IMG/VR virus record: IMGVR_UViG_2728369607_000012
Coordinates: 1-10,926 of that record
Direction: 5' to 3' (one strand)
Source: a virus
Taxonomy: Duplodnaviria > Heunggongvirae > Uroviricota > Caudoviricetes
Length of the DNA stretch: 10,926 nt
The notes beneath the pieces were generated by a model. The model did no database searches. It was not told the origin of the DNA and worked only from the letters and a program-made list of their open reading frames with translations. The position numbers were made by a program, and so were the translations under genes. The first letter of the stretch is position 1; each line of letters opens with the position of its first letter. Of the stretch, positions 1-10,926 are shown in pieces.

Positions 1-34
1 TTTCCGGCTATCCGTTATGAAGCTGGTGGATGTT

Positions 35-85
35 CCCCGATATGGGGATCCCCATAACGGGGCTACCGGATTTTTTTCCGGTTAA
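35..85 (+). terminator. Paired CCCC-N5-GGGG hairpins followed by ACCGGA-T7-TCCGGT; possible terminator of an upstream plus-strand gene
   Basis: Imperfect 28-bp palindrome at 35-62 (ccccgatatgggga / tccccataacgggg), then accgga-ttttttt-ccggt at 65-83. Confidence 0.25.
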
Positions 86-342
86 CCTTTAATCAGGCTG
101 GTGGGTCTTACATACCCTTGATCACCGTAATGATGATCCAGATGTGCACCTTTTCCACCAATGGCGGAAAAGCTCCAACCGTAACGATGATCGCTATGGT
201 TGCCTCGATGGTCTGCGTGGTCATTATGACCATTCAGCCAGTGACCTTAATCAGAATTTTTCGCTAAAAAATGACGTTGGCCACGTCATCCGGAAAGCAC
301 AAAATCACGTCGATTTTTAATGAACGGTTAAACCGTCTTTTT

Positions 343-377
343 GTCACGGTGTGTCACTGGTTGTCACTCTCCGTCAC
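343..377. promoter_or_regulatory. Four GTCAC pentamers at exact 10-bp phasing (candidate protein-binding array)
   Basis: GTCAC at 343-347, 353-357, 363-367 and 373-377; nearby palindromes at 270-286 and 324-337. Confidence 0.35.
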
Positions 378-406
378 GATTGAGGTGGTGCTCATTCTGC
401 CCGACC

Positions 407-629
407 GCGCATTTTTGCGCTATCGGGAATATAAAACAGTTACCGCGCCGACTTCCTCAAATTGAGGTTTCCGAAAATATCAACTAGTTAACGATAAACT
501 GGCGAGTAATTAAACTACGAAAATTTCGTAGTTTGTGAATATATTCCGGCCTGCTGGTTAACAGTCCTCAGATGTGAGGGATGTAGCCAGCGCAATTTTG
601 CGTTATCGGGAATATCAAACAGTTACCGC
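407..629. repeat. Two 40-bp direct repeats (407-446 and 590-629, 37/40 identical) flanking small palindromes
   Basis: gcgcatttttgcgctatcgggaatataaaacagttaccgc versus gcgcaattttgcgttatcgggaatatcaaacagttaccgc. Between them lie hairpin-like sites CCTCA-N3-TGAGG (455-467) and CCTCA-N4-TGAGG (566-579) and a 23-bp perfect palindrome (512-534). Confidence 0.75.
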
Positions 630-674
630 CGTCAGCTACCCAGCTCAGAATTGAGCCGCCTTTTAATCAACAAG

Positions 675-965
675 TTACCGCCGTAACCGCCGTAACCGCT
701 CCGGCTTCTTCCAGTGGTACGTGATTTTCTCCTTCTCCCGATACAGTTCAACGCGGCGATTGTAGGCCAGCATTTCCAGAACGCGGATCCGTATGTCGCG
801 CATATCCGCATCATTAAGCTGGATACCATCACGGCGCATCACCTCAGCAACAACACGCGCATAATTTTCGGCTGTCACGCTGTCCGGCTGCGTGGTCTGT
901 TCGTCAGCCTGCTGGCTGATTCCAGAGACGCGGCGGATTAATCGCAGTATTTCGGCTTCTGTCAT
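675..965 (-). CDS. Hypothetical protein (96 aa) with Arg-rich C-terminus (RLRRLRR)
   Basis: ATG at 965 preceded by GAGGT with a 7-nt spacer; starts 13 nt after the TerL stop; C-terminus is encoded by three tandem 9-bp GTAACCGCC-like repeats at 674-700. No family recognised. Confidence 0.5.
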   Translation of the reverse strand: MTEAEILRLIRRVSGISQQADEQTTQPDSVTAENYARVVAEVMRRDGIQLNDADMRDIRIRVLEMLAYNRRVELYREKEKITYHWKKPERLRRLRR

Positions 966-978
966 GCTGCTGACCTCA

Positions 979-2640
979 TTACACCCCGCTAAATTCTTCC
1001 AGTTTCTGGCGGTGGCTGTCGCTTATATCAAAAGCAAAATCCTCATGCTCTGCCTGGAATGTACCAAACGCCATCAGCGCCGCTACGCTCGGGTCTATCT
1101 TGTTCGGTGATTTTTTCTTGTTCGGCTTGATATTGGCGTTCGCGTCACTCTGCATCACGACGTTACTCATCGACCAGGACAACACCGGATCGCCACGATG
1201 CACAATCACCCTGCGGTTAACAAAAACTTCGAACGATTTCGCCGCCGGACTGAATCTGAGGTAGGTTTGCGGGAACGGCTCCACCTCAAAACCAGCCCCC
1301 TGTAATTGCGTCCTGAGATGCGTGGCGTTCCACGTATCAAAGCCCACCAGCCTGATATTAAATTTCTCCGCATCCTGCATGATGTCATCTCTGATCCGGT
1401 CGTAATCAATGCAGTCACCTGGCGTTGTGCGTATCCAGCCCGCTTTAGCCCACTGGCGATAGACAGCGCGGTTTTTATTGGCGGGGTTCTGTAGCTGGAA
1501 CTCCGGCAGATAATGACGGGAAACCAGCATGATATTTTTACCGACCGGAAAGGCATAGCACACGCTGGAAATATCGCTGGTTGATGATAAGTCCAGCCCC
1601 GCGTAACACTCCTGCCCGTGTAAATCTTCCTCCGTGAACGTTCCGGCACACTCAGCCCATGCGCCGTTACCCATCCACGGGGTAGCCCCCTGGCACCAGA
1701 TATTAAATCGCTTTGTCATCATCTCCACCCATTGCGACGGAATACCCCGCGCTTTCTGGATGGTTGAGGCCAGTTTTTCACGATCCACGGAAACATCGAT
1801 GTTAGGGTTAGCCTTTATCCACATCGCCGGATCATCAACCTCGTTTTCGTCGTCCAGCTCGTAAATCAGCACAAAAATTGAATCGTTGACCTCTTCGCCG
1901 TCCAGGATCTGGCAGCAATAATCATAGTGCTGCTTACAGGCTGAAACGACGTTACTGCCCGATGTGGTAATGGCAAATAACAGCCCTTCGGGACGTGCGC
2001 CCATCCCCAGCTCAAGCGCGGAATAAACGCCGTTATCGGGGTGTAGGTGGTATTCGTCCACGATGGAAAGGCTTGGGTTTGTGCCCTCGATGGTTGCCGC
2101 TTTTGCTGCCAGCGGCTTTAACAGGCTGTTGCTTTTCGGGTGCATCACCTTGTGGGCCTGAATATTCACCCGCCTGCGTAACGGTCGGGATAAAAGGCAC
2201 ATCTGACGCGCATCATCAAAAACGATCCGCGCCTGGTCACGGCTCACCGCTGCGGTGTAAATATCCTGCTGCCCGTTCTCCATAATCAGAAACCAGTTAG
2301 CCAGAATCGCGGCGGTCGTGGATTTCGCATTTTTGCGCGGCACTTCGATAAAGGCGCTCGTGTATTTGCGCCGTCCGGTGGCCTTAACCTTAAAGCCGAG
2401 GATGCACGCAAAGGCGAACTGCTGCCACGGCTCCAGCTCAATGGATCTGCCACGCATCGGCCCTTTTACGTGCGGGCACACCCTGGAAAAGGCAATAAAC
2501 CGCTCCACAACCTCACGATCGAACGTGTAAAGGGGGCTTTCAAGGTCCGAAAAGTACCGTTTAACGGCCTGTTTCAGCCGTTTACAGGCCGGAATTTTGC
2601 CCGTTTTTACGTCTTCTGCGTACTTATTCCAGGCGGTCAA
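979..2640 (-). CDS. terL: Terminase large subunit (553 aa)
   Basis: Size, N-terminal pattern (AWNKYAEDVKTGKIPACKRLKQAVKRYFSDLE) and position directly after terS are typical of HK97/lambda-type TerL. Start codon is TTG at 2638-2640, preceded by AGAGGA with a 5-nt spacer; overlaps terS by 17 nt. Confidence 0.9.
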   Translation of the reverse strand: MTAWNKYAEDVKTGKIPACKRLKQAVKRYFSDLESPLYTFDREVVERFIAFSRVCPHVKGPMRGRSIELEPWQQFAFACILGFKVKATGRRKYTSAFIEVPRKNAKSTTAAILANWFLIMENGQQDIYTAAVSRDQARIVFDDARQMCLLSRPLRRRVNIQAHKVMHPKSNSLLKPLAAKAATIEGTNPSLSIVDEYHLHPDNGVYSALELGMGARPEGLLFAITTSGSNVVSACKQHYDYCCQILDGEEVNDSIFVLIYELDDENEVDDPAMWIKANPNIDVSVDREKLASTIQKARGIPSQWVEMMTKRFNIWCQGATPWMGNGAWAECAGTFTEEDLHGQECYAGLDLSSTSDISSVCYAFPVGKNIMLVSRHYLPEFQLQNPANKNRAVYRQWAKAGWIRTTPGDCIDYDRIRDDIMQDAEKFNIRLVGFDTWNATHLRTQLQGAGFEVEPFPQTYLRFSPAAKSFEVFVNRRVIVHRGDPVLSWSMSNVVMQSDANANIKPNKKKSPNKIDPSVAALMAFGTFQAEHEDFAFDISDSHRQKLEEFSGV

Positions 2641-2980
2641 GCTCGTCCTCTTCTTCTGTTTCCGGTGGATTTTTACGGCGGCTTATCGGGTCAAAACCGA
2701 GCAAGGAGGCCATTTTTATCATCACTCTTTCAGCGTCGGATTTTGCGCTTAATGCGGGGTTTCTGCTCTCGCCGCCCTGACTGTTAACAATGCTGAACCC
2801 GCGCGCCGCAAGGTCTGCAACGGCTTTCCGGTAAATGGAGTAGTTGACACAATACAGTTCCAGATTGCTCCAGTCGGCGGGGGTCAGGTCTCCCCGTTCC
2901 GCAAGCTGCCTAGATTTTTCCCGCCACTGCTTCACGGCGATATCATCCAGGTAGGCGGGGGCTTTCGGTGGTCTTGACAT
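2624..2980 (-). CDS. terS: Terminase small subunit, P27-like (118 aa)
   Basis: N-terminus MSRPPKAPAYLDDIAVKQWREK...LELYCVNYSIYRKA resembles P27-family small terminases; acidic C-terminus; sits immediately upstream of and overlaps terL. Confidence 0.8.
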   Translation of the reverse strand: MSRPPKAPAYLDDIAVKQWREKSRQLAERGDLTPADWSNLELYCVNYSIYRKAVADLAARGFSIVNSQGGESRNPALSAKSDAERVMIKMASLLGFDPISRRKNPPETEEEDELDRLE

Positions 2981-3269
2981 GCTTATTTTTTCGCCAGATT
3001 ATTTTTCAAAAAATTCCCGTGCATAAAAATTTGAGGAGGCGTTCGGTGCCCGGCGGGGTCGGGTTTGTCCTGAAAACGCCCCCCACCCCGTCATACAGCC
3101 TCATCAGCGATTGCGGAAACATTCCATAACCTCGCGGTCACGGTCGGTTAATCGCTTCGCTGTGATGCGTTCTGCGCGTCCTGACGCTTTATCTTTATGC
3201 CCTGTTTCCTGTGTCTTCCATGCGTCACGCTGCCTTATAAGTCCACGGATAAGGCGGTTTTGTTCCCGC
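2981..3269 (-). promoter_or_regulatory. Candidate cos / packaging-initiation region (HNH-terS intergenic spacer)
   Basis: 289-bp non-coding gap in an otherwise tightly coupled operon; GC-rich core (ggtgcccggcggggtcgggtttgtcctgaaaacgccccccaccccg, about 3038-3090) flanked by AT-rich sequence. Position between HNH and terS matches where HK97-type cos sites lie. Confidence 0.3.
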
Positions 3270-3710
3270 TCATTCATCAGCGTCATACATCCAGTTATTG
3301 CGGTTAGCGGCCCGTTCTTCCTCTTCACGAAATCCACCTGCGGCACGCTTGCTTTTTGTTGCCGGATCAAGCCATTTCGTTTTCTGGTTATGACACGCCT
3401 GGCACAATGGTTGATGGTTCCATTCGGGCCAGAAGAGAACATCATCACCGCCATTAATCGGGATAATGTGATCCACCACCACGGCGGGCGTATATATCCC
3501 CTTCTCAAGGCATCGCACGCATAACGGGTTTTTACTCAGATACATGGCGCGGTATTTGTCCCACTGTCTGGAATATCCACGCGCGCGGCGGTGTCCTCGT
3601 CTGGCATCCTCTGCACGCCATGCTGCCCGCCTGTGCTCCTCACACTTGCCGGATTTAACGCGCCTGTTACAGCCTGGTTCTGTGCATCGTCTTAATGGTT
3701 GCCACGGCAT
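3270..3710 (-). CDS. HNH endonuclease (146 aa), terminase-associated
   Basis: Cys/His zinc-finger-like N-terminus (CTEPGCNRRVKSGKCEEH) and HNH-type motif (VVDHIIPINGGDD...NHQPLCQACHNQKT); located directly upstream of terS; start overlaps connector stop (TGATG). Confidence 0.85.
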   Translation of the reverse strand: MPWQPLRRCTEPGCNRRVKSGKCEEHRRAAWRAEDARRGHRRARGYSRQWDKYRAMYLSKNPLCVRCLEKGIYTPAVVVDHIIPINGGDDVLFWPEWNHQPLCQACHNQKTKWLDPATKSKRAAGGFREEEERAANRNNWMYDADE

Positions 3711-4006
3711 CAGTACACCCCCACATCACGGTAAGCCGTCCAGAGTGCGCCAATCGTCATGGGTACGCGTGTTTTTGCGTTATCCGCGACAATCTGGCGA
3801 TTCTCATACAGGTGAGCGATAAACATCATGCAGCCAATCTTTATGGCTGGCGTGAACTCCAGCCCGTCATCAAAGCGCCTGCCTATGTGTATCTGGCACG
3901 CCTCAAGCGATGCGGCAATGTATCCGCTGATTAACTGGTCTTCCTCGTCTCCATCGATACGGCAATGGAGTTTCACTTCTTCCAGGGTGATAAGTTCTTC
4001 TGTCAT
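3710..4006 (-). CDS. Head-tail connector protein, gp6-like (98 aa)
   Basis: Size and sequence character (MTEELITLEEVKLHCRIDGDEEDQLISGYIAA...) typical of gp6-like connector proteins; ATGA start/stop overlap with the upstream gene. Confidence 0.7.
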   Translation of the reverse strand: MTEELITLEEVKLHCRIDGDEEDQLISGYIAASLEACQIHIGRRFDDGLEFTPAIKIGCMMFIAHLYENRQIVADNAKTRVPMTIGALWTAYRDVGVY

Positions 4007-4341
4007 TTTTCCGCGCCCTCACGACAAAGAATTTCAAGGCGTGTCCTGGCGACATCCGGCAACGGCTGCCCGATGATATTCAGTACACGCCCCGCCAGCG
4101 GCCCCGTACTGACCTTTATCCGGCTGGTGGCGTTGATGTCCTTCCGGTACCGTATCCAGATCCTTACGGTACCAATCGCCAGCTCTGCGCCCGATGAAAT
4201 GGCCTCCTTGCTGCTGATCATGTTCACGCTTGCCCAGAGTGTGTGACCGTCCTCCCACGTTTCGAGTATTTCGCCCGTCATGGCTCTGGTCTGTTTCAGG
4301 GTCTGAATCGTTATCCTGTCACGCAGTCGCCCTATGTTCAT
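4003..4341 (-). CDS. Head-tail adaptor / head closure protein (112 aa)
   Basis: Sequence resembles phage head-tail joining family proteins. Start chosen at ATG 4339-4341 (ATGA overlap with portal stop, GGGAGA upstream) rather than the longer form from 4383. Confidence 0.7.
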   Translation of the reverse strand: MNIGRLRDRITIQTLKQTRAMTGEILETWEDGHTLWASVNMISSKEAISSGAELAIGTVRIWIRYRKDINATSRIKVSTGPLAGRVLNIIGQPLPDVARTRLEILCREGAEK

Positions 4342-5549
4342 TCCGGTTTTTCTCCCTCGCTGATTTTTACTTCCTGTTTCCATGCCTGACTGAACTCATC
4401 ACCACCATCACGCGGTGACAGTCCTTCACGTTCGCGGGCTTCGTTCGGGCACATAACGCCGGATTTGATGCCGCACTCATAGGTGGCAAAGCGTTCGCCA
4501 GGTGTGGCCCGTAACAGGTCCGCGCTGTCAAACTCCACCTGATACCGGATACCAGGTACAGGCGAGGCCACCAGCAGGGCGTTTTTTATCTGCTGCTCAA
4601 AGTTCGCCAGCCACGGGCGCATCGTCATGGTGAGAAATGCGCGGCTTGCCTCGCTGAAATTGCTGTAGGTGCTGTTGCTGTATTCCTGCAAAAAAATCGG
4701 CGAGACGTTGAACATTCGGGCGATGTCTTCAATGGTAAAGCGACGGGAGGCCAGCCATTCAGCATCCTGATTACTCATGCCCAGCTGCTGATAGCTCATC
4801 CCCCCTTCAAGGATGGGCGTTTTTCCGGCGTTTCTGGCCCCTTTGTAGCGTTCCAGTGCGGCTAATGCCTGTTTGCCCTTCACGCCGTCCAGCCATTCGC
4901 CTGACGTGATAACCCCTGCCGCCATCATGCCATCACGCATCACGCTCGCGCCGTGGCGTTGTTGGGCCAGCCCAAGCCCCAGCGATTCGCGGCAGATGGT
5001 TACAGGTGAGCGCCCCATAAAGCCGTCATCCGTGGAGTAACGAAGGTGAAGTACTTCCCACGGTAAATAGTTGTGGGTGTTTCCGGTGTAGGCGTCAGTG
5101 ATGCAATAGCGCCAGTTGTGTTCGCCTGTCTGCTCCACGTTCACCGACTGCGGCGGGTAAGGATGTAAAGCCGCCGGAAAACCATCACGCCCCCACTGAA
5201 TAACCGCATAAGCATTACCGTTTAACAGGCAGTGGCGGATCATCATTCGCTTAAACTGGTAGGGGGTTTGCCATGCGTTCGGGCGCTCGTTGAGGATGTG
5301 ATCGACCGGATGAGAATCAAGCCACTCGCGGGCCTCCTTCCCCTTCTCATTGCGTACCAGGTACAGGTAGCATGGCATAGTAGCCACCGCCTCAGAGATG
5401 ACCGTAACGGCGTTCATGACGGCAGGCAGTGATTCCGCTGTCCCCGATGATACGTACTCACCCGCCCCCGTGTTCGATGTGCCAGCCAGCGCCATAAATT
5501 CATCAAGCGTCATGCTGCGCTGCTCTTTTTTTCTTCTGAAAGGCCACAT
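4338..5549 (-). CDS. Portal protein, HK97-type (403 aa)
   Basis: Size and sequence typical of HK97-family portal proteins; flanked by prohead protease and head-tail adaptor genes. Confidence 0.88.
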   Translation of the reverse strand: MWPFRRKKEQRSMTLDEFMALAGTSNTGAGEYVSSGTAESLPAVMNAVTVISEAVATMPCYLYLVRNEKGKEAREWLDSHPVDHILNERPNAWQTPYQFKRMMIRHCLLNGNAYAVIQWGRDGFPAALHPYPPQSVNVEQTGEHNWRYCITDAYTGNTHNYLPWEVLHLRYSTDDGFMGRSPVTICRESLGLGLAQQRHGASVMRDGMMAAGVITSGEWLDGVKGKQALAALERYKGARNAGKTPILEGGMSYQQLGMSNQDAEWLASRRFTIEDIARMFNVSPIFLQEYSNSTYSNFSEASRAFLTMTMRPWLANFEQQIKNALLVASPVPGIRYQVEFDSADLLRATPGERFATYECGIKSGVMCPNEAREREGLSPRDGGDEFSQAWKQEVKISEGEKPE

Positions 5550-5550
5550 A

Positions 5551-6123
5551 TCACACCCCCGCTAAATCCACCCACCAGCGGCGATTATCCGCACGCGGCA
5601 TTTTTTCGGGGTGCTGCTCATACAGGGAACGGCGGGCCAGCTCCACGCCGGAATCGGGGTAAGCCGGTACCGATGTAACGGTAATTTCGTACAGTTCCGC
5701 CACCAGCACGGTGCGCACGCATGGATCTGTTGTGGTATCCCATACATCCTTACGGGAGCGAAAGCCAAAGCTCATGCCGGATATATCACCACGTTTAACC
5801 AGTTCGATAACGTCGCGCCCTGTACTGGTATCCGGTGGGGTCAGTTCAAAGCGTAACCCTGTTTCATCCTCTTCCAGTTTCAGCGTGCCGGAACGGGTGC
5901 GCCCCAGTAACATACTGTGGTCATGCTCATACAGGCCGCGAACGTCATTACCCGCCGCAAGCCATTCAGTAAACGCCCCCCGCTGGAATTTTTCGTAAAA
6001 CTCACCCCATAACAGTTCTGAAAGCTTATCCCAGCGAACAACGTAGCCTGTAAGCGTGTTGCTGCCGCTGGTGGTGATTTCCGATGACCGGATTTCCATA
6101 CTCTTCATAATTTTTTCACCCAT
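5551..6123 (-). CDS. Prohead maturation protease, HK97-type (190 aa; exact start uncertain)
   Basis: Sequence typical of HK97-family prohead proteases; sits between major capsid and portal genes. Three ATGs within the first nine codons make the start ambiguous. Confidence 0.82.
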   Translation of the reverse strand: MGEKIMKSMEIRSSEITTSGSNTLTGYVVRWDKLSELLWGEFYEKFQRGAFTEWLAAGNDVRGLYEHDHSMLLGRTRSGTLKLEEDETGLRFELTPPDTSTGRDVIELVKRGDISGMSFGFRSRKDVWDTTTDPCVRTVLVAELYEITVTSVPAYPDSGVELARRSLYEQHPEKMPRADNRRWWVDLAGV

Positions 6124-6133
6124 AAAACACTAA

Positions 6134-6151
6134 AGGGGCTTTTAAGCCCCT
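6134..6151 (-). terminator. Stem-loop plus U-rich tract between capsid and protease genes (partial terminator / attenuator)
   Basis: On the minus strand: AGGGGCTT-AAAA-GCCCCT-type hairpin followed by TTAGTGTTTT immediately before the protease ATG. Confidence 0.35.
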
Positions 6152-6162
6152 TCTGTATGCTG

Positions 6163-7320
6163 TTAATCGTCGTCCTGTGGCAGTTCCAGAATCTTGATCG
6201 CGTTCGAATCCACCACGCCACCGCCTAAATATTTCTGCGTGAAAATTTTGATGAAACCCGGCTCTGTGAGGTTGTCCGGTCTGGTGCGAACACCTGTTTC
6301 GTGATCAACAATGTAGTAACCGCGTTTGAAGTCACCCAGGGCAATAACGTTATCAGGCATAAACTCCAGATATTCGACCGGAAGGCCCAGCAACGTATCA
6401 GGATCACCCGCCTGTAAACGGTCACGCCAGATGTAATCACCGTTCGCGTTCTTCACCTTCTGGAGTTTTGCCGCCGTCGTGGAGTTAACCACCCAGACCG
6501 CGTTTTTGCGGTATTTTTTACGTAATGCAAATTTCAGGTCGATCAGCGGGTCCGCAGATGTCCACGCCAGAGATTCGGAAGGTTTAATTACCTGCAACGT
6601 ACCAAAATCACGCTCTTTGTCGTTCTTCTCTGCACGGGGTACGGATAAAAAACCTTTTGCTTTTTTGTCACCGTCGCCCACAACCAGATCGCTTTCTTCG
6701 GTTTCCGTGAAGGTGTCGCCAATCTCACCCGTCAGCCATGAAAGGATGTCCACATCGGAAAAATCCACGATTTCCTGTGTGGTGCGCGGGTACGCATAGA
6801 CCGGATACAGCTTAATGCTCACCTCGTTAATCTGCGGGGTGCTGGTCTGTTCGCGTGCCTTACCCTCTTCACCGTGGTTAACGGTCGCACCGCCAGCGGA
6901 AACAAGCTGCTTAAACTCGTTGCTGCTGATTTTTTTCACGGTACAGATGCGGCGCATGGTGGACTCATCCGCCAGCATTCGCATGATTTCGGTGTTCAGT
7001 TCGGGGATAACGGTATAACCACCATCAGCGGGAACGCCTGTACTTAATGCGCGGGTTTCACCTGTCAGAATGTAGCTGCGTAGTTCTGCGGGGTCAGTGG
7101 TCTGGCTGCTTTTACCTGGCTTGCTGCGCTCTTCGTCTGCAATGGCTTCAAGGCGGGAAATGTCTTTATCGAGGGATTCAGCTTTAGCGCGTAATTCGTC
7201 AAATTTTGCGCCCTCAGCATCGTTAAGACTGCGGTTTTCTTTTTCCGCGTTCTCCAGCATGTCGCGCATCTGATTTTTAATGGCGGTTTTCTGCTGGCGT
7301 AATTCGATTATTCTCGGCAT
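6163..7320 (-). CDS. Major capsid protein, HK97-type (385 aa)
   Basis: Size typical of HK97-fold capsid proteins; N-terminal region rich in charged, coiled-coil-like sequence (delta/scaffold-like domain); followed by protease and portal genes. Confidence 0.88.
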   Translation of the reverse strand: MPRIIELRQQKTAIKNQMRDMLENAEKENRSLNDAEGAKFDELRAKAESLDKDISRLEAIADEERSKPGKSSQTTDPAELRSYILTGETRALSTGVPADGGYTVIPELNTEIMRMLADESTMRRICTVKKISSNEFKQLVSAGGATVNHGEEGKAREQTSTPQINEVSIKLYPVYAYPRTTQEIVDFSDVDILSWLTGEIGDTFTETEESDLVVGDGDKKAKGFLSVPRAEKNDKERDFGTLQVIKPSESLAWTSADPLIDLKFALRKKYRKNAVWVVNSTTAAKLQKVKNANGDYIWRDRLQAGDPDTLLGLPVEYLEFMPDNVIALGDFKRGYYIVDHETGVRTRPDNLTEPGFIKIFTQKYLGGGVVDSNAIKILELPQDDD

Positions 7321-7357
7321 AAAAAAAGTCCTGGGGTTAAGTAAGGAACTCCAGGAC
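7321..7357 (-). promoter_or_regulatory. Terminator-like hairpin plus U7 abutting the capsid start codon
   Basis: Minus strand reads GTCCTGG-AGTTCCTTACTTAACC-CCAGGAC then TTTTTTT then ATG. The only SD-like AGGA lies inside the 3' arm of the stem. Confidence 0.4.
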
Positions 7358-7410
7358 GCGGCAAAAACTCAACCGTTTTTCATAAGGGAATCAGCAATCG
7401 CACCGATCGT

Positions 7411-7458
7411 TTTCCCGCCTGGTAATGAATATTGGCGAGCACATTAACAGGCGGGAAA
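7411..7458 (-). repeat. Inverted repeat in capsid-operon leader (11-bp perfect arms, extendable to 17 bp with one mismatch)
   Basis: tttcccgcctg (7411-7421) and caggcgggaaa (7448-7458) are exact reverse complements. Confidence 0.6.
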
Positions 7459-7504
7459 GTGGCCCCAGCGTCCTGGCACCACGGGCGAGAATAATCATGA
7501 TTCA

Positions 7505-7560
7505 GTTCGGGTAAAATATGCCGATCCGCTCAGTGAACAACGTGGAACAACCACGAACAA
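7505..7560 (-). promoter_or_regulatory. Candidate promoter / activator site for the capsid operon: three helically phased TTGTTC hexamers
   Basis: On the minus strand TTGTTC recurs three times at exactly 10-bp spacing (plus-strand GAACAA at 7535-7540, 7545-7550, 7555-7560). The last copy sits 16 bp upstream of a TATTTT -10-like hexamer (plus 7513-7518). Confidence 0.3.
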
Positions 7561-7565
7561 ATAAT

Positions 7566-7601
7566 TTACAAAAAATAACAAAAAGCCGGATTGCTCCGGC
7601 T
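7566..7601 (-). terminator. Rho-independent terminator
   Basis: Minus strand: AGCCGGA-GCAA-TCCGGCT stem-loop (GNRA-type loop) followed by TTTTTGTTATTTTTT; lies downstream of the 53-aa ORF stop at 7624. Confidence 0.65.
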
Positions 7602-7623
7602 GCGTGGTGTGGTTCTGATATTC

Positions 7624-7785
7624 CTACTCTGCTAATTTGCTCAGCCCCATGTCTGCGTAAGTGCGATTTACTGCATTTCTCAGGTCTGCGTAGTTCTCCG
7701 TTGGCGGCTCCGGTGTGCCCTTGCTGCTCTGTTTTACCTGCGGGTCGTCCACCAGCCGCCCGTAAGCTGCAATTTGTGCTGTCAT
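7624..7785 (-). CDS. Small hypothetical protein (53 aa)
   Basis: ATG at 7783-7785 preceded by GAGGTGG with a 4-nt spacer; starts 9 nt after the upstream gene stop; followed by the intrinsic terminator. Below the 60-aa cutoff of the supplied ORF track; found by manual translation. Confidence 0.45.
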   Translation of the reverse strand: MTAQIAAYGRLVDDPQVKQSSKGTPEPPTENYADLRNAVNRTYADMGLSKLAE

Positions 7786-7794
7786 ATTGCCACC

Positions 7795-8100
7795 TCAGTG
7801 AAGCGATCCGGCATTGTTCTTTTTCATCTCTTCCATCATTTTTTCAGTGAGCATTACGCACTGAAACCCCATGTTTTTGATGTCTACGGGTTTCATGCCT
7901 TTGTCAGTGGATATCACAGGCAGAATATCCTGATACACATCGCGGTCAGGGTAACTAAGCACACAAAGCGCCCATGATGCCACGGGTGAGGATCCTTCGA
8001 CTGTTTCAACCCACCAGCCTGGTGTAGCTGCGCTTATTTGCAGAATCGTGATCCGTCCGTTGTGCTTGTAAAATTTTTCACCAAATTTTGGTTCGCTCAT
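7795..8100 (-). CDS. Hypothetical protein (101 aa)
   Basis: Start ATG overlaps the stop of the upstream ORF (ATGA); co-oriented in a tightly packed operon. No family recognised. Confidence 0.55.
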   Translation of the reverse strand: MSEPKFGEKFYKHNGRITILQISAATPGWWVETVEGSSPVASWALCVLSYPDRDVYQDILPVISTDKGMKPVDIKNMGFQCVMLTEKMMEEMKKNNAGSLH

Positions 8101-8348
8101 GATTCCACCTCTCCGGTTTTAACGTTGATTGTTGTTACCTGTTCCGCTTCGGCAATCTCCCGTTCTGTCAGCGTGGCAAAGTTTGCCGCCGCTGTGGTCA
8201 TGAATGCGCTTATCAGTTCGGGATGCTCCTTCGCGTATCCTTCCCCCGCGTGGCGGTCTATCGTTCTGATTGCCACCTTTAAAGCGTGCTCTGTCATGTC
8301 TAACGCTTTATATTTTGGCTGTGTTCTGTCTCTGCGTTTTTGTGTCAT
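8097..8348 (-). CDS. Hypothetical protein (83 aa from ATG 8348; start uncertain)
   Basis: The longest form (from 8396) has its N-terminus encoded by the iteron repeats, so an internal start is more plausible. ATG 8348 is abutted by GGGGAG; ATG 8297 is an alternative. Confidence 0.45.
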   Translation of the reverse strand: MTQKRRDRTQPKYKALDMTEHALKVAIRTIDRHAGEGYAKEHPELISAFMTTAAANFATLTEREIAEAEQVTTINVKTGEVES

Positions 8349-8351
8349 CTC

Positions 8352-8525
8352 CCCACCTATACCCACTTTTACTCCCCACTTTTCACAATTCCCCATTTAT
8401 CATGCTGTTTCATAAGGATTTTTTTGCTCCCCACTTTTTGGGATGTATACAGGTCAAAAAGTGGGGGATCGTGTTTAAATTTTGTTAAATTCCCCATACC
8501 CACCACTTTTGCCACCCACTTTTTA
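8352..8525. repeat. Iteron array: candidate replication origin
   Basis: CCCACTTTT-type motif in direct orientation at about 8362-8370, 8374-8383, 8429-8439, 8499-8510 and 8515-8524, and inverted at 8456-8466. The 8429-8439 and 8456-8466 copies form an 11-bp perfect inverted repeat around a 16-bp spacer containing GTATAC. An AT-rich stretch lies at 8471-8490. The array begins at the replication-protein stop codon. Confidence 0.55.
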
Positions 8526-9932
8526 CAGTGGCCCTACATCATCGCCGTCAACATAGATAACGCCGTCTTTTTCCAGCTTGCCCAGCCAGCGCCGGAAGTG
8601 CTTTATTTCGTACCCCAGTTTTTTCATGTCATCACGTAACAGCGGGATCGTGCACTTGTCGCCGTTCTGTGTGCGTGAACGGATACACCCCCATAGCGCG
8701 GTATGGTTTTCCGTCTTGTTGCCTGCCTCTTCGATGCGCTCCAGTTCAACGGGAGGGCGCGGCTTATCCACCACCACCAGCGACGTGATTAACTCCCCGT
8801 CAGCGTCGGTAAAAAGCTCCACCACCCGCAAATCATAGGCAGCCTCTTTGAGTTCCTCCGCGTCCTTCATTTTGGTGCATGAGATAACCAGCGCTTCGCT
8901 TCCTGCGTCCTCCCTGCGTATCCGGTATTCAGCATCCAGTGATGCACGAAATGCACTGGAACCGCGCGCGCCTTTCGTCTCATCCTTGCCGGAATGGTGA
9001 ACCACCAGCACCGTGGCCCCTGTGCGTCGTTTCAGTTCGTCACAACCACGGATAAACGCCCCCATATCACGGGAATCATTTTCATCATTCCCACCAAAGC
9101 AACGCGCCAGCGTATCCAGAATAATCATGCGTACAGGTTTACCCGTTTCCCGCTCCACCTGACGGGCAGCGATAACCATTTCATCAACATCAAGCGGGAC
9201 CGCCGGAAAGATGGGACGGTTTACCAGATACAGATTTTTCACCTGCTCACCGTGCACAACCTCCCAGGCTTTTACACGACGCGGAACGCCGATACCGCCT
9301 TCACCAACCACATAGAGAACAGCGCCATGCGCCACCCTGCGGCCTCCCCACTGGCGGCCCGTGGAAACGTGACACGCCCACGATCCGGCAAGGAATGATT
9401 TATAGGAACCGCTCGCCCCGTATATGCTGCAAAGCGACGATGCCGGAATAATCCCCTTTACCACGTAATCAAGCTGTGTGTCGTATCCGGTAGATCCAAC
9501 GCTCATCGGTAGCGTGGTTTTTCGCTGGGGGATTTTTTTCATGACCAGGCTTTCCCCGCGTTCCCATGCCTCCCTAAGCCGTGGAAGCTGGTCGCTCCAT
9601 TCCTCCAGCAATTCGAAATTTTCAGAAAGTAGCCGCGCCTCCTGGACTCCGGCGATCGCCAGTTTCGTGGCGATGGTTAACAGCTGCGGCTCTTCAATAT
9701 TTCCGGCGCGTATCACCGTCGCCCTGTATCGCCCATCATCAACAATCTGGAGGTTATCCAGTTCGCTTAACTGATAACGCCCCAGATAAACGGGAGGGAC
9801 TGGATCTCCTGCTTTTTTTGCCTGTGCAATGATGTAATGCTCTGCGAATGAATGAGCATCAATACCCGCAAAAATAATCGCATCGGTGTATTTATCTTTC
9901 GGTAATCGTTTTACGTTCGGTGCCAGTTTCAT
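8523..9932 (-). CDS. Replication protein with RecA/DnaB-like ATPase core (469 aa); satellite or phage replication initiator-helicase
   Basis: Walker A-like GASGSYKS, Walker B-like RMIILD, and VVHHSGKDETKGARGSSA motif typical of RepA/DnaB-like replicative ATPases; N- and C-terminal extra domains; start forms an ATGA overlap with the upstream ORF. Confidence 0.8.
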   Translation of the reverse strand: MKLAPNVKRLPKDKYTDAIIFAGIDAHSFAEHYIIAQAKKAGDPVPPVYLGRYQLSELDNLQIVDDGRYRATVIRAGNIEEPQLLTIATKLAIAGVQEARLLSENFELLEEWSDQLPRLREAWERGESLVMKKIPQRKTTLPMSVGSTGYDTQLDYVVKGIIPASSLCSIYGASGSYKSFLAGSWACHVSTGRQWGGRRVAHGAVLYVVGEGGIGVPRRVKAWEVVHGEQVKNLYLVNRPIFPAVPLDVDEMVIAARQVERETGKPVRMIILDTLARCFGGNDENDSRDMGAFIRGCDELKRRTGATVLVVHHSGKDETKGARGSSAFRASLDAEYRIRREDAGSEALVISCTKMKDAEELKEAAYDLRVVELFTDADGELITSLVVVDKPRPPVELERIEEAGNKTENHTALWGCIRSRTQNGDKCTIPLLRDDMKKLGYEIKHFRRWLGKLEKDGVIYVDGDDVGPL

Positions 9933-10228
9933 TTTTTACCCCTGAATCCGTTAATCATGGTTTTCAGCTTCTGGATGTTTGCCCGTGCCCTGGCGTTGCT
10001 GGTGGGCACGTTATGCGGCGCGGTCTGTACCAGAGAAAAATCACGCCGGAACTGATAAACAGGCATCACGCAATCATATTCGTAACCTTCACGGCGGTAA
10101 GTTACGCACCGTCCCGCCACGCCCTTAATCATTACCGTACCGCCGTACTGGTCGCGGTAAATATCACCGCGCGTAAATTTAGGGTGAGTGTTGCCACTGG
10201 CAGTTAAGCCAGAATATTTAAGTTTCAT
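9929..10228 (-). CDS. Hypothetical protein (99 aa)
   Basis: ATG at 10228 preceded by GGAGAA with an 8-nt spacer; stop overlaps the replication-protein start. No family recognised. Confidence 0.55.
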   Translation of the reverse strand: MKLKYSGLTASGNTHPKFTRGDIYRDQYGGTVMIKGVAGRCVTYRREGYEYDCVMPVYQFRRDFSLVQTAPHNVPTSNARARANIQKLKTMINGFRGKK

Positions 10229-10233
10229 TATTT

Positions 10234-10467
10234 TTATTCTCCGGTGTGGGGCGCTTTATACTGGTCGTGTAATGTCTCTATTTCCTGCAACTCATTTATT
10301 ACAGGCTCAAGAAGCGTTATTAATGCCGTGGCAATTCTTGATTTTTGTTTGTCGCGTTCATTGTCGCCAAGTGTTTCAAGCCATATGCGCAATATTTCCA
10401 TCATATTTTCACTGTGAGAAAGTGCAAGAAATACGCGATCTGTTGTTTCGTGGTAAATATCACGCAT
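10234..10467 (-). CDS. Hypothetical protein (77 aa)
   Basis: ATG at 10467 preceded by GAGGATG with a 6-nt spacer; overlaps the upstream ORF by 8 nt. Confidence 0.5.
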   Translation of the reverse strand: MRDIYHETTDRVFLALSHSENMMEILRIWLETLGDNERDKQKSRIATALITLLEPVINELQEIETLHDQYKAPHTGE

Positions 10468-10693
10468 GGCTTACATCCTCAGGAAATTTTCTTCTGTAAC
10501 GAGCCTCTGCCACATATTCCGCATAATCGGCGGCGATATTCAGTACATCAAGCCCCGTTGATTTATATTCTCTCGTGGAAAGTAAGAAAAAAGCCGCTCT
10601 AATAAGTTCTGGCATTGACGAAAGCGCATCAGCCGCATCATCAGATACGCCGGAAAATTCCTGTTTCAGGGAATTAAAACGATCATCAAGCAT
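10460..10693 (-). CDS. Hypothetical acidic protein (77 aa)
   Basis: ATG at 10693 sits 2 nt downstream of a G9 tract on the coding strand; part of the same small-gene operon. Confidence 0.45.
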   Translation of the reverse strand: MLDDRFNSLKQEFSGVSDDAADALSSMPELIRAAFFLLSTREYKSTGLDVLNIAADYAEYVAEARYRRKFPEDVSHA

Positions 10694-10926
10694 AACCCCC
10701 CCCCATTTTCACAATCAGCAATCAGGATAGCTTTGGCCTCATTCAGCGCCATATCAGCACTAAGTTGCATAACCGCCAGCGAATGAGGAACGAAAGCCCC
10801 TGCATATTCTGTTTCACTGGTGGCGTGCTTATGCGCCCTGTCAGCAATAACAGAAATATCAATAAGCGCGTGCATCAGCGTAGTGAGCGCGGCGGCTGCT
10901 GCGTCCGGTGTGGTTTTATTGTGCAT
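10666..10926 (-). CDS. Hypothetical protein (86 aa or longer; may continue beyond the window edge)
   Basis: Open frame reaches the window end, where an ATG sits at 10924-10926; the 3' end reads through the G9 tract (encodes GGG). Confidence 0.4.
   Translation of the reverse strand: MHNKTTPDAAAAALTTLMHALIDISVIADRAHKHATSETEYAGAFVPHSLAVMQLSADMALNEAKAILIADCENGGGLCLMIVLIP
10696..10704. repeat. Homopolymeric C9 (G9 on coding strand) tract
   Basis: Nine consecutive C at 10696-10704, read directly from the sequence. Confidence 0.9.

Follow-up and report, generated by a model that had tools for sequence, protein, structure and literature searches.

The origins of SaPIs and PICIs lie immediately 3' of rep and consist of short iterons on either side of an A+T-rich region, and the Rep proteins that act on them are self-loading helicases whose C-terminal winged helix recognises the origin (PMC9371898; PMC6092414). 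For SaPIs, the rule is that at least two iterons stand on each side of the A+T region and that the two sets run in opposite directions (PMC9371898). Among the E. coli PICI origins that we compared, an experimental test exists only for EcCICFT073, whose Rep belongs to the primase family. Specifically, a rep-ori fragment of this island maintained a temperature-sensitive plasmid, deletion of rep or ori impaired maintenance, and loss of ori caused a strong drop in rep-dependent plasmid maintenance (PMC6092414). Autonomous replication driven by a rep-ori segment has otherwise been shown for SaPIs (PMC6092414). In the same work, Fillol-Salom et al. (2018) counted the RepA-family Rep of a second island, EcCI042, among four 'Pri-Rep' alleles (PMC6092414). 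More recently described are the cf-PICIs, satellites that build their own capsids and borrow only the tails of helper phages (bioRxiv 10.1101/2022.09.08.507074; 10.1101/2025.02.11.637232), and that package their own DNA with TerS, TerL and HNH (bioRxiv 10.1101/2022.09.08.507074). The cf-PICI papers do not mention an ori or iterons.

Our analysis concerns a stretch of 10,926 nucleotides (positions 1 to 10,926 of IMG/VR record IMGVR_UViG_2728369607_000012), hereafter the window. Its long reading frames all lie on the minus strand and include genes for TerL, TerS, HNH, head-tail connectors, a portal, a prohead protease, an HK97 capsid, a Rep protein, and a DUF4222 protein; no tail or lysis genes were found in the window. 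A cf-PICI is defined as an island of 10-18 kb that carries an integrase, a replication module, and its own capsid, protease, portal, connector, HNH, TerS, and TerL, without genes for tails or lysis. Every gene on this list other than the integrase is present in the window, and both an integrase and an attachment site (tqsA) were seen in the closest island, L001, which is roughly 15 kb in length, is inserted in tqsA, and has an identity to the window given as 97%, or as 97-99%. On its gene content, the element is best classified as a PICI-type satellite of the capsid-forming kind from E. coli. A contig in assembly GCA_001466815.1 (L171) is identical to the window (100% over 3.6 kb), and DNA matching the rep-origin segment was found in about 1600 of 5426 complete E. 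coli genomes. When window positions 7603-7785 are compared with L001 11378-12075, about 620 bp have been replaced by about 108 bp, and as a result ssb is reduced to a 53-aa open reading frame (7624-7785) and perC is absent. The same truncated ssb and missing perC are seen in GCA_001466815.1.

Between the stop codon of the 469-aa rep gene and the start of the neighbouring minus-strand gene there is a noncoding gap of 174 bp (8349-8522). The features of this gap and of its flanks are as follows, in order of window position.

8097..8348, minus strand: gene for an 83-aa hypothetical protein, with the start given by homologue annotations; it marks where the rep-ori cassette ends distally.
8352-8360: degenerate iteron copy, overlapping the ribosome-binding region of the neighbouring gene 8097..8348.
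8362..8370, minus strand: iteron 6, distal pair, 13 bp from iteron 5.
8375..8383, minus strand: iteron 5, distal pair.
8395..8396, no strand: junction of a 28-bp deletion, relative to relatives.
8406..8425, no strand: conserved non-iteron block TGTTTCATAAGGATTTTTTT, including a T7 tract at 8419-8425 (A7 in rep sense); compared over 35 distinct alleles.
8429..8466, no strand: central palindrome with 12-bp arms and spacer GGATGTATACAGGT; GTATAC at 8445-8450.
8430..8438, minus strand: iteron 4, the rep-distal palindrome arm; offset +85.
8457..8465, plus strand: iteron 3, the sole inverted copy and rep-proximal palindrome arm; offset +57, inverted, in relatives.
8472..8491, no strand: spacer TGTTTAAATTTTGTTAAATT, rich in A+T (about 80-85%), which separates the palindrome from the proximal iterons.
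8502..8510, minus strand: iteron 2, AAAAGTGGT, 8/9 bases, 13 bp from iteron 1; offset +13 in relatives.
8515..8523, minus strand: iteron 1, AAAAGTGGG in rep sense, overlapping the TAA stop at 8523-8525; offset 0 in all relatives.
8523..9932, minus strand: rep, 469 aa; N-terminal domain, predicted RecA-fold SF4-type helicase core, and predicted C-terminal winged helix.
8598..8600, minus strand: codon CAC for His445, which directly precedes the predicted recognition helix 446-455; motif K-H-F-R-R-W-L.

Read in the sense of rep, the gap holds six copies of AAAAGTGGG, five of them exact and one with a single mismatch. On the plus strand, CCCACTTTT occurs exactly at 8362, 8375, 8430, and 8515, an inverted exact copy occupies 8457-8465, and the scan for CCCACTTTT returned the one-mismatch copy at 8502, which reads ACCACTTTT. 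The five direct copies and one inverted copy noted in a preliminary description of this DNA are thereby borne out, as is its placement of the array directly after the stop codon of the replication gene, a minus-strand TAA that the first repeat overlaps. Two weaker copies (7/9 bases) lie at 8352 and 8392. Across the 10.9-kb window, exact copies are confined to 8362-8523, this gap is the only place where any 9-mer reaches at least three copies per 177 bp, and no second iteron cluster was found elsewhere. Furthermore, the array is not random: five non-overlapping copies of one 9-mer were never obtained (0/5000) when non-overlapping 9-mers were counted in 5000 dinucleotide-preserving shuffles of the region, and the shuffle maximum was 3, reached in 8 shuffles. 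The iterons are 9-10 bp long with a tandem spacing of 13 bp; the proximal and distal pairs are co-oriented, and the central pair is the only inverted one.

The central pair forms a perfect palindrome with arms CCCCACTTTTTG (8429-8440) and CAAAAAGTGGGG (8455-8466) around the 14-nt spacer GGATGTATACAGGT, and the cores of the two arms are iteron copies 8430 and 8457. As first described, the inverted repeat was an 11-bp perfect one around a GTATAC-containing spacer; it is perfect, and its arms measure 12 bp. An A+T-rich stretch had also been noted. The gap has a G+C content of 41% vs 52% for the whole window, and two segments, 8395-8427 (65-75% A+T) and 8472-8491 (about 80-85% A+T), sit between the iteron groups, where the PICI origin definition places them. 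The A+T-rich stretch is thus present, yet it is modest, with the two segments ranking merely 6th to 8th least stable across the window. These two points, the 12-bp arms and the modest A+T richness, are small corrections, and the original observation stands. In the origin region there is no conserved DnaA box or IHF site; a single match to the DnaA box at 8 of 9 positions is not conserved. A single GATC (Dam site) adjoins the palindrome at 8467-8470 and is likewise not conserved, being GATT in L001.

The layout of the array is shared widely. In 84 E. coli and IMG/VR loci, the copies stand at offsets of about 0, +13, +57 (inverted), +85, +168, and +181 from the rep stop, and a similar layout occurs in about 70 loci from other Enterobacterales genera, among them Xenorhabdus, Serratia, Pectobacterium, Morganella, Photorhabdus, Kosakonia, Pantoea, and Yersinia. 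In total, about 155 related loci in the Enterobacterales have this arrangement 3' of rep. Within an allele, all copies shift in concert: they read CCCAC in the window and CTCAC in O157:H7, EcCI042, and other alleles. Apart from the iterons, two stretches do not vary among 35 distinct close alleles: GTATAC in the middle of the palindrome and the block TGTTTCATAAG-N-TTTTTTT. Distant genera, whose iterons differ, keep TGTATAC, TATATAC, or GTATATATAC in the middle of the palindrome. Two loci, L070 and L073, have 5 or 6 tandem proximal iterons instead of 2 in the first 70 nt past the rep stop, with a strict 13-bp period, and iteron copy number therefore varies by unit expansion.

The protein encoded upstream of the array matches Pfam AAA_25 (E 2e-43), and its AlphaFold2 model (mean pLDDT 89.9) has three parts. 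Its family comprises roughly 20,000 members at E up to 1e-10. The predicted helicase core, at about residues 150-390, carries the Walker A motif GASGSYKS. Its best structural matches in Foldseek were the RSF1010 RepA hexameric helicase, T7 gp4, and Twinkle; against RSF1010 RepA (1g8y), the core gave a phmmer E of 0.007 and a Foldseek TM of 0.73, normalised to target. The C-terminal residues 396-469, encoded by 8526-8747, are predicted to form a winged helix composed of a three-helix bundle (408-422, 429-438, 446-455) and a beta-hairpin wing (459-468). At the other end of the protein, an alpha/beta domain of about residues 1-125 (window 9558-9932) comes in two strongly diverged versions in Reps that otherwise resemble one another. 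Searches of Pfam and NCBIfam with the N-terminal and C-terminal domains gave no match even at E up to 10, and neither a primase domain nor a Rep_3 domain was found in Rep. In some relatives, the N-terminal domain is replaced by a zinc-ribbon/Toprim primase (P0119). The idea that the N-terminal domain of the window Rep is a degenerate Toprim was unsupported, as its BLASTP match to the primase-fused P0119 was non-significant (E 0.34).

How, then, does the locus compare with the described systems? The closest is EcCI042, which has a RepA-family Rep, the same six-site layout, and a palindrome around GTATAC. Its slot is that of the window (DUF4222 gene, rep, gap, small gene, ssb, perC), and it resides in tqsA, the attachment site used by the window's closest relative. 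The two differ in that EcCI042 has Asn445 and AAAAGTGAG iterons, whereas the window has His445, AAAAGTGGG, and the 28-bp deletion; furthermore, the window element carries a full capsid and terminase module, whereas EcCI042 has no annotated terminase genes. EcCICFT073 (L167) has the same slot order of DUF4222, rep, gap, small gene, ssb, and perC, but its initiator, a 584-aa protein of the primase family, is unrelated to the window Rep, and its iteron-filled gap of 288 bp holds TCTACC/GGTAGA in two opposed sets, where the sets of the window are co-directional. The SaPI rule of opposed iterons is accordingly followed by EcCICFT073 and not by the window. As in other PICI origins, the array directly follows rep (its first iteron overlaps the stop codon), the iteron count (six plus two degenerate copies) falls within the range of 6-12, and Rep ends in a winged helix with predicted specific recognition of the iterons, that is, a cognate Rep-ori pair.

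SaPI origins resemble that of the window in lying 3' of rep and in combining short iterons with A+T-rich DNA (Ubeda et al.; Qiao et al. 2022, PMC9371898), and SaPI Reps are likewise hexameric helicase initiators with a C-terminal winged helix and cognate Rep-ori pairs, as predicted for the window Rep (PMC9371898). However, SaPI Reps are AAA+ (SF3/MCM-like) 3'-5' helicases, whereas the predicted core of the window Rep is not AAA+ and has the RecA fold of the AAA_25 / RepA type, related to RSF1010 RepA and T7 gp4, so it falls outside the SaPI Rep family. In addition, SaPI iterons are 5-6 bp long in two opposed sets, while those of the window are 9-10 bp long, in co-directional flanking sets with one central inverted pair. 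The alpha protein of P4 is also a satellite initiator-helicase whose C-terminal domain reads short repeats (general knowledge; PMC6092414 discussion). It differs in joining a primase to an SF3 helicase and in its dependence on crr as a further cis site. The window lacks another iteron cluster, its Rep has no primase domain, and the P4 type I iteron TGTTCACC, allowing up to one mismatch, was not found in the scanned origin region 8341-8530.

Among plasmids, RSF1010 (IncQ) supplies in its RepA (1g8y) the closest solved fold for the helicase core of the window Rep. The 20-bp iterons of RSF1010 are recognised by another protein, RepC, and its RepA lacks a winged helix for DNA binding. The window Rep is thus predicted to fuse helicase and DNA-binding functions that RSF1010 splits between RepA and RepC. 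Iteron plasmids such as pPS10, RK2, R6K, F, and P1 share with the window the placement of repeated initiator sites beside an A+T-rich region. Yet their origins have 17-22-bp iterons at a spacing of about 22 bp, Rep_3 initiators that are not helicases, DnaA boxes, and loading of host DnaB (PMC4980987; general knowledge), and none of these Rep_3-type features was found in the window. The architecture had at first been called classic for satellite and plasmid origins. The satellite half of that statement holds in its PICI-type form, and the likeness to plasmids is loose, given 9-10 bp repeats, a helicase initiator, and the lack of a DnaA box. The window origin has most of the defining features of a PICI origin and is neither of the Rep_3 iteron-plasmid type nor of the P4 ori/crr type.

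Rep and the array are further tied together by covariation. When residue 445 of Rep was compared with base 7 of the repeat, the N in its core GTG[N]G, His went with G in 52/52 loci, Asn with A in 59/59, Ser with C in 7/7, and Lys with G in 36/38, the two exceptions being loci without a clear array. The association persists after redundancy is removed: among distinct whole proteins, there were 36 cases of His with G and 22 of Asn with A, and among distinct C-terminal domains, 20 of His with G, 27 of Asn with A, 7 of Ser with C, and 30 of Lys with G. Column 445 is the sole column with zero conditional entropy, both in 58 distinct full-length proteins (runner-up 0.55 bits) and in 84 distinct C-terminal domains (runner-up 0.30 bits). 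A neighbour-joining tree built from the gap and the C-terminal coding region calls for at least three independent switches between His and Asn, and near-identical C-terminal backgrounds were found in both states. Two Reps that are 98% identical overall to that of the window (L008 and L009) have an Asn-type C-terminus together with A-type iterons; therefore, the DNA-binding tail and the origin recombine together.

In the predicted structure, residue 445 would sit directly before the third (recognition) helix. A position just ahead of the recognition helix is a usual site of base contacts, and the pairing of Asn with adenine and of His or Lys with guanine is common where proteins touch DNA. Based on these patterns in the aligned loci, His445 is a candidate for the residue that sets specificity at base 7 of the iteron. 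No such rule of one residue and one base was found in the literature searched, and literature searches with iteron strings (AAAGTGGGG, CCTCACTTT, and others) returned primer noise and nothing relevant. Three Asn445 loci (L062, L076, and L081) contain five A-type iterons and one distal G-type copy at offset +181, and these arrays may be intermediates of a specificity switch or recombinants. Several Xenorhabdus genomes contain two to three elements each (within L087-L166, for example L091/L095, L096/L103/L160, and L100/L101) that agree both in their Asn-type Rep tail and in their GTGAGGAA iterons; elements resident in one genome are therefore not always different in iteron specificity.

Rep and its array also behave as a cassette. 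Similarity to islands with shared downstream genes is interrupted where the gap ends distally: megablast matches H28-H45 break at about 8341-8358. Flanked by the genes for DUF4222 and the 83-aa protein, the slot accommodates at least three unrelated initiators (RepA/AAA_25, DUF927, and a primase family), each with its own array. With a DUF927-type initiator, the gap holds a TGCGGGTTA array of 11 copies; with a primase-type initiator, it holds a GGTAGAYAG/TCTACC array, with GGTAGAYAG in about 9 copies. The slot gaps of other initiators lie at 3253-3622 in L005, 3280-3566 in L006, and 6997-7284 in L167.

Taken together, our results suggest, with a probability of roughly 85%, that 8349-8522 is the replication origin of a capsid-forming PICI and that the protein encoded by 8523-9932 is both its initiator and its helicase. 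This reading is well supported because of the layout, the covariation, the occurrence of different initiators with their own repeats, and the experimental demonstration of an origin in this slot for EcCICFT073. All of the comparative evidence gathered agrees with it, and thus favours the original proposal that iterons and an A+T element form an origin recognised by Rep. For this allele, we infer both binding and initiation.

A separate matter is whether the copy in the window still works. Its gap of 174 bp is short: nearly all other RepA-type loci measured have 199-203 bp, and a few alleles with additional iterons exceed that. The difference stems from a loss of 28 bp at 8395/8396, a point with the T-tract block on one side and the distal iterons on the other. 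The deletion, which also occurs in the independent assembly L171 (GCA_001466815.1), shortens the spacing from the palindrome to the distal iterons by 2.7 helical turns. In addition, 9/10 genomes with an identical Rep keep the long form of the gap along with intact ssb and perC. Combined with the loss of most of ssb and all of perC, the deletion may mark a decaying, poorly replicating copy. An argument can therefore be made that the locus is an origin by descent that is now nonfunctional, or less efficient, in the window copy. We consider this unlikely, although it deserves real weight. The window copy retains the full set of six iterons along with an undamaged palindrome and T tract, its rep has an intact reading frame that is 100% identical to copies that have the long gap, and the 28 bp that were lost belong to the least conserved portion of the gap.

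An improbable alternative to the origin reading is that the repeats are Rep-binding operators whose main role is transcriptional control, or a roadblock, of the 83-aa gene, ssb, perC, and the capsid operon. The distal repeats abut and overlap the ribosome-binding region and start of the 83-aa gene, and inverted repeats in iteron plasmids often serve as operators. Moreover, the covariation shows only that Rep recognises the repeats: it proves co-inheritance under selection and does not tell initiation from regulation. Nevertheless, purely regulatory sites would not readily account for three unrelated initiator families, each with its own array at the same position, or for the requirement of the equivalent EcCICFT073 region in rep-dependent plasmid maintenance (PMC6092414). 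A scan of the gap identified no sigma-70-like promoter, and the first repeat sits on the rep stop codon, distant from any start site. A regulatory side-role of the repeats alongside the origin role is possible.

It is highly improbable that the palindrome at 8429-8466 is an intrinsic terminator or attenuator of the rep transcript with the remaining repeats being incidental. With a 12-bp perfect stem and a 14-nt loop, the palindrome is the sole stable hairpin of the region upon single-strand folding. Yet the loop is long, the stem in rep sense is followed by AGCAAAAAAA rather than a U tract, and the terminator scan of the gap was negative, including at the palindrome itself. The fold of the whole region is no better than that of shuffles (z -0.72), no Rfam family was found (the single match, at E 0.44, is a chance one), and the arms are iteron copies that covary with Rep. 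A packaging role, in which the small terminase of the island would recognise the repeats as its cos or pac site, has next to no probability. Terminase sites are often rich in repeats, and cf-PICIs package their own DNA with TerS/TerL/HNH (bioRxiv 10.1101/2022.09.08.507074), but the repeats covary with Rep, the same ori type is found in EcCI042, where no terminase genes are annotated, and the rep-ori block recombines independently of the packaging module.

If the gap is the origin, replication could proceed along the following lines, in which we infer Rep binding, the melting site, self-loading, and the source of primase. After induction by a helper phage and excision, the winged helices of Rep would bind the six 9-bp AAAAGTGGG iterons: two in tandem 13 bp apart by the stop codon, an inverted pair at the TGTATAC centre, and two in tandem before the neighbouring gene. 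At the start of the recognition helix, His445 would read base 7 of each iteron. Rep would then assemble as a ring or rings at the palindrome, and the DNA would melt at the TA-rich centre and the flanking A+T tracts. By analogy with the origins of other initiator-helicases, the TA-rich centre of the palindrome and the adjacent A tract are the most likely place of first melting, and we propose the palindrome as the helicase-loading centre as well. The Rep helicase would load itself on the single-stranded DNA and recruit host primase and polymerase, and the resulting concatemers would be cut and packaged by the island's own terminase.

A more specific reading, which we advance tentatively and hold to be somewhat short of an even chance, is that RepA-type PICI origins represent a distinct origin design. 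Such a design would fuse an SF4-type helicase to an Orc/Cdc6-like winged helix and would use six sites, a number matching a hexamer, in two co-directional pairs around an inverted pair. It would further include a conserved TGTATAC melting centre, and its replicon specificity would follow from a code of one residue and one base, with His or Lys specifying G, Asn specifying A, and Ser specifying C at GTG[N]G.

For the class as a whole, locating the origin in this cf-PICI allele brings no novelty: PICI origins had been described before, and the RepA-type replicon was listed among E. coli PICI alleles in 2018 (PMC6092414). Our comparison does show that Rep's DNA-binding tail travels with the origin in recombination, and it points to the conserved TA-rich palindrome centre as a likely melting site. 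PICIs and cf-PICIs are very common in E. coli; these elements mobilise virulence and defence genes, and their replication after helper-phage induction hinges on the rep-ori pair. In this context, the relationship between residue and base, which extends across about 155 loci and includes several independent switches, may be useful as a testable specificity rule for cognate Rep-ori pairs. If the code is causal, single substitutions would suffice to create orthogonal satellite replicons, which would explain how rep-ori cassettes diversify and would offer a simple handle for engineering compatible replicons.
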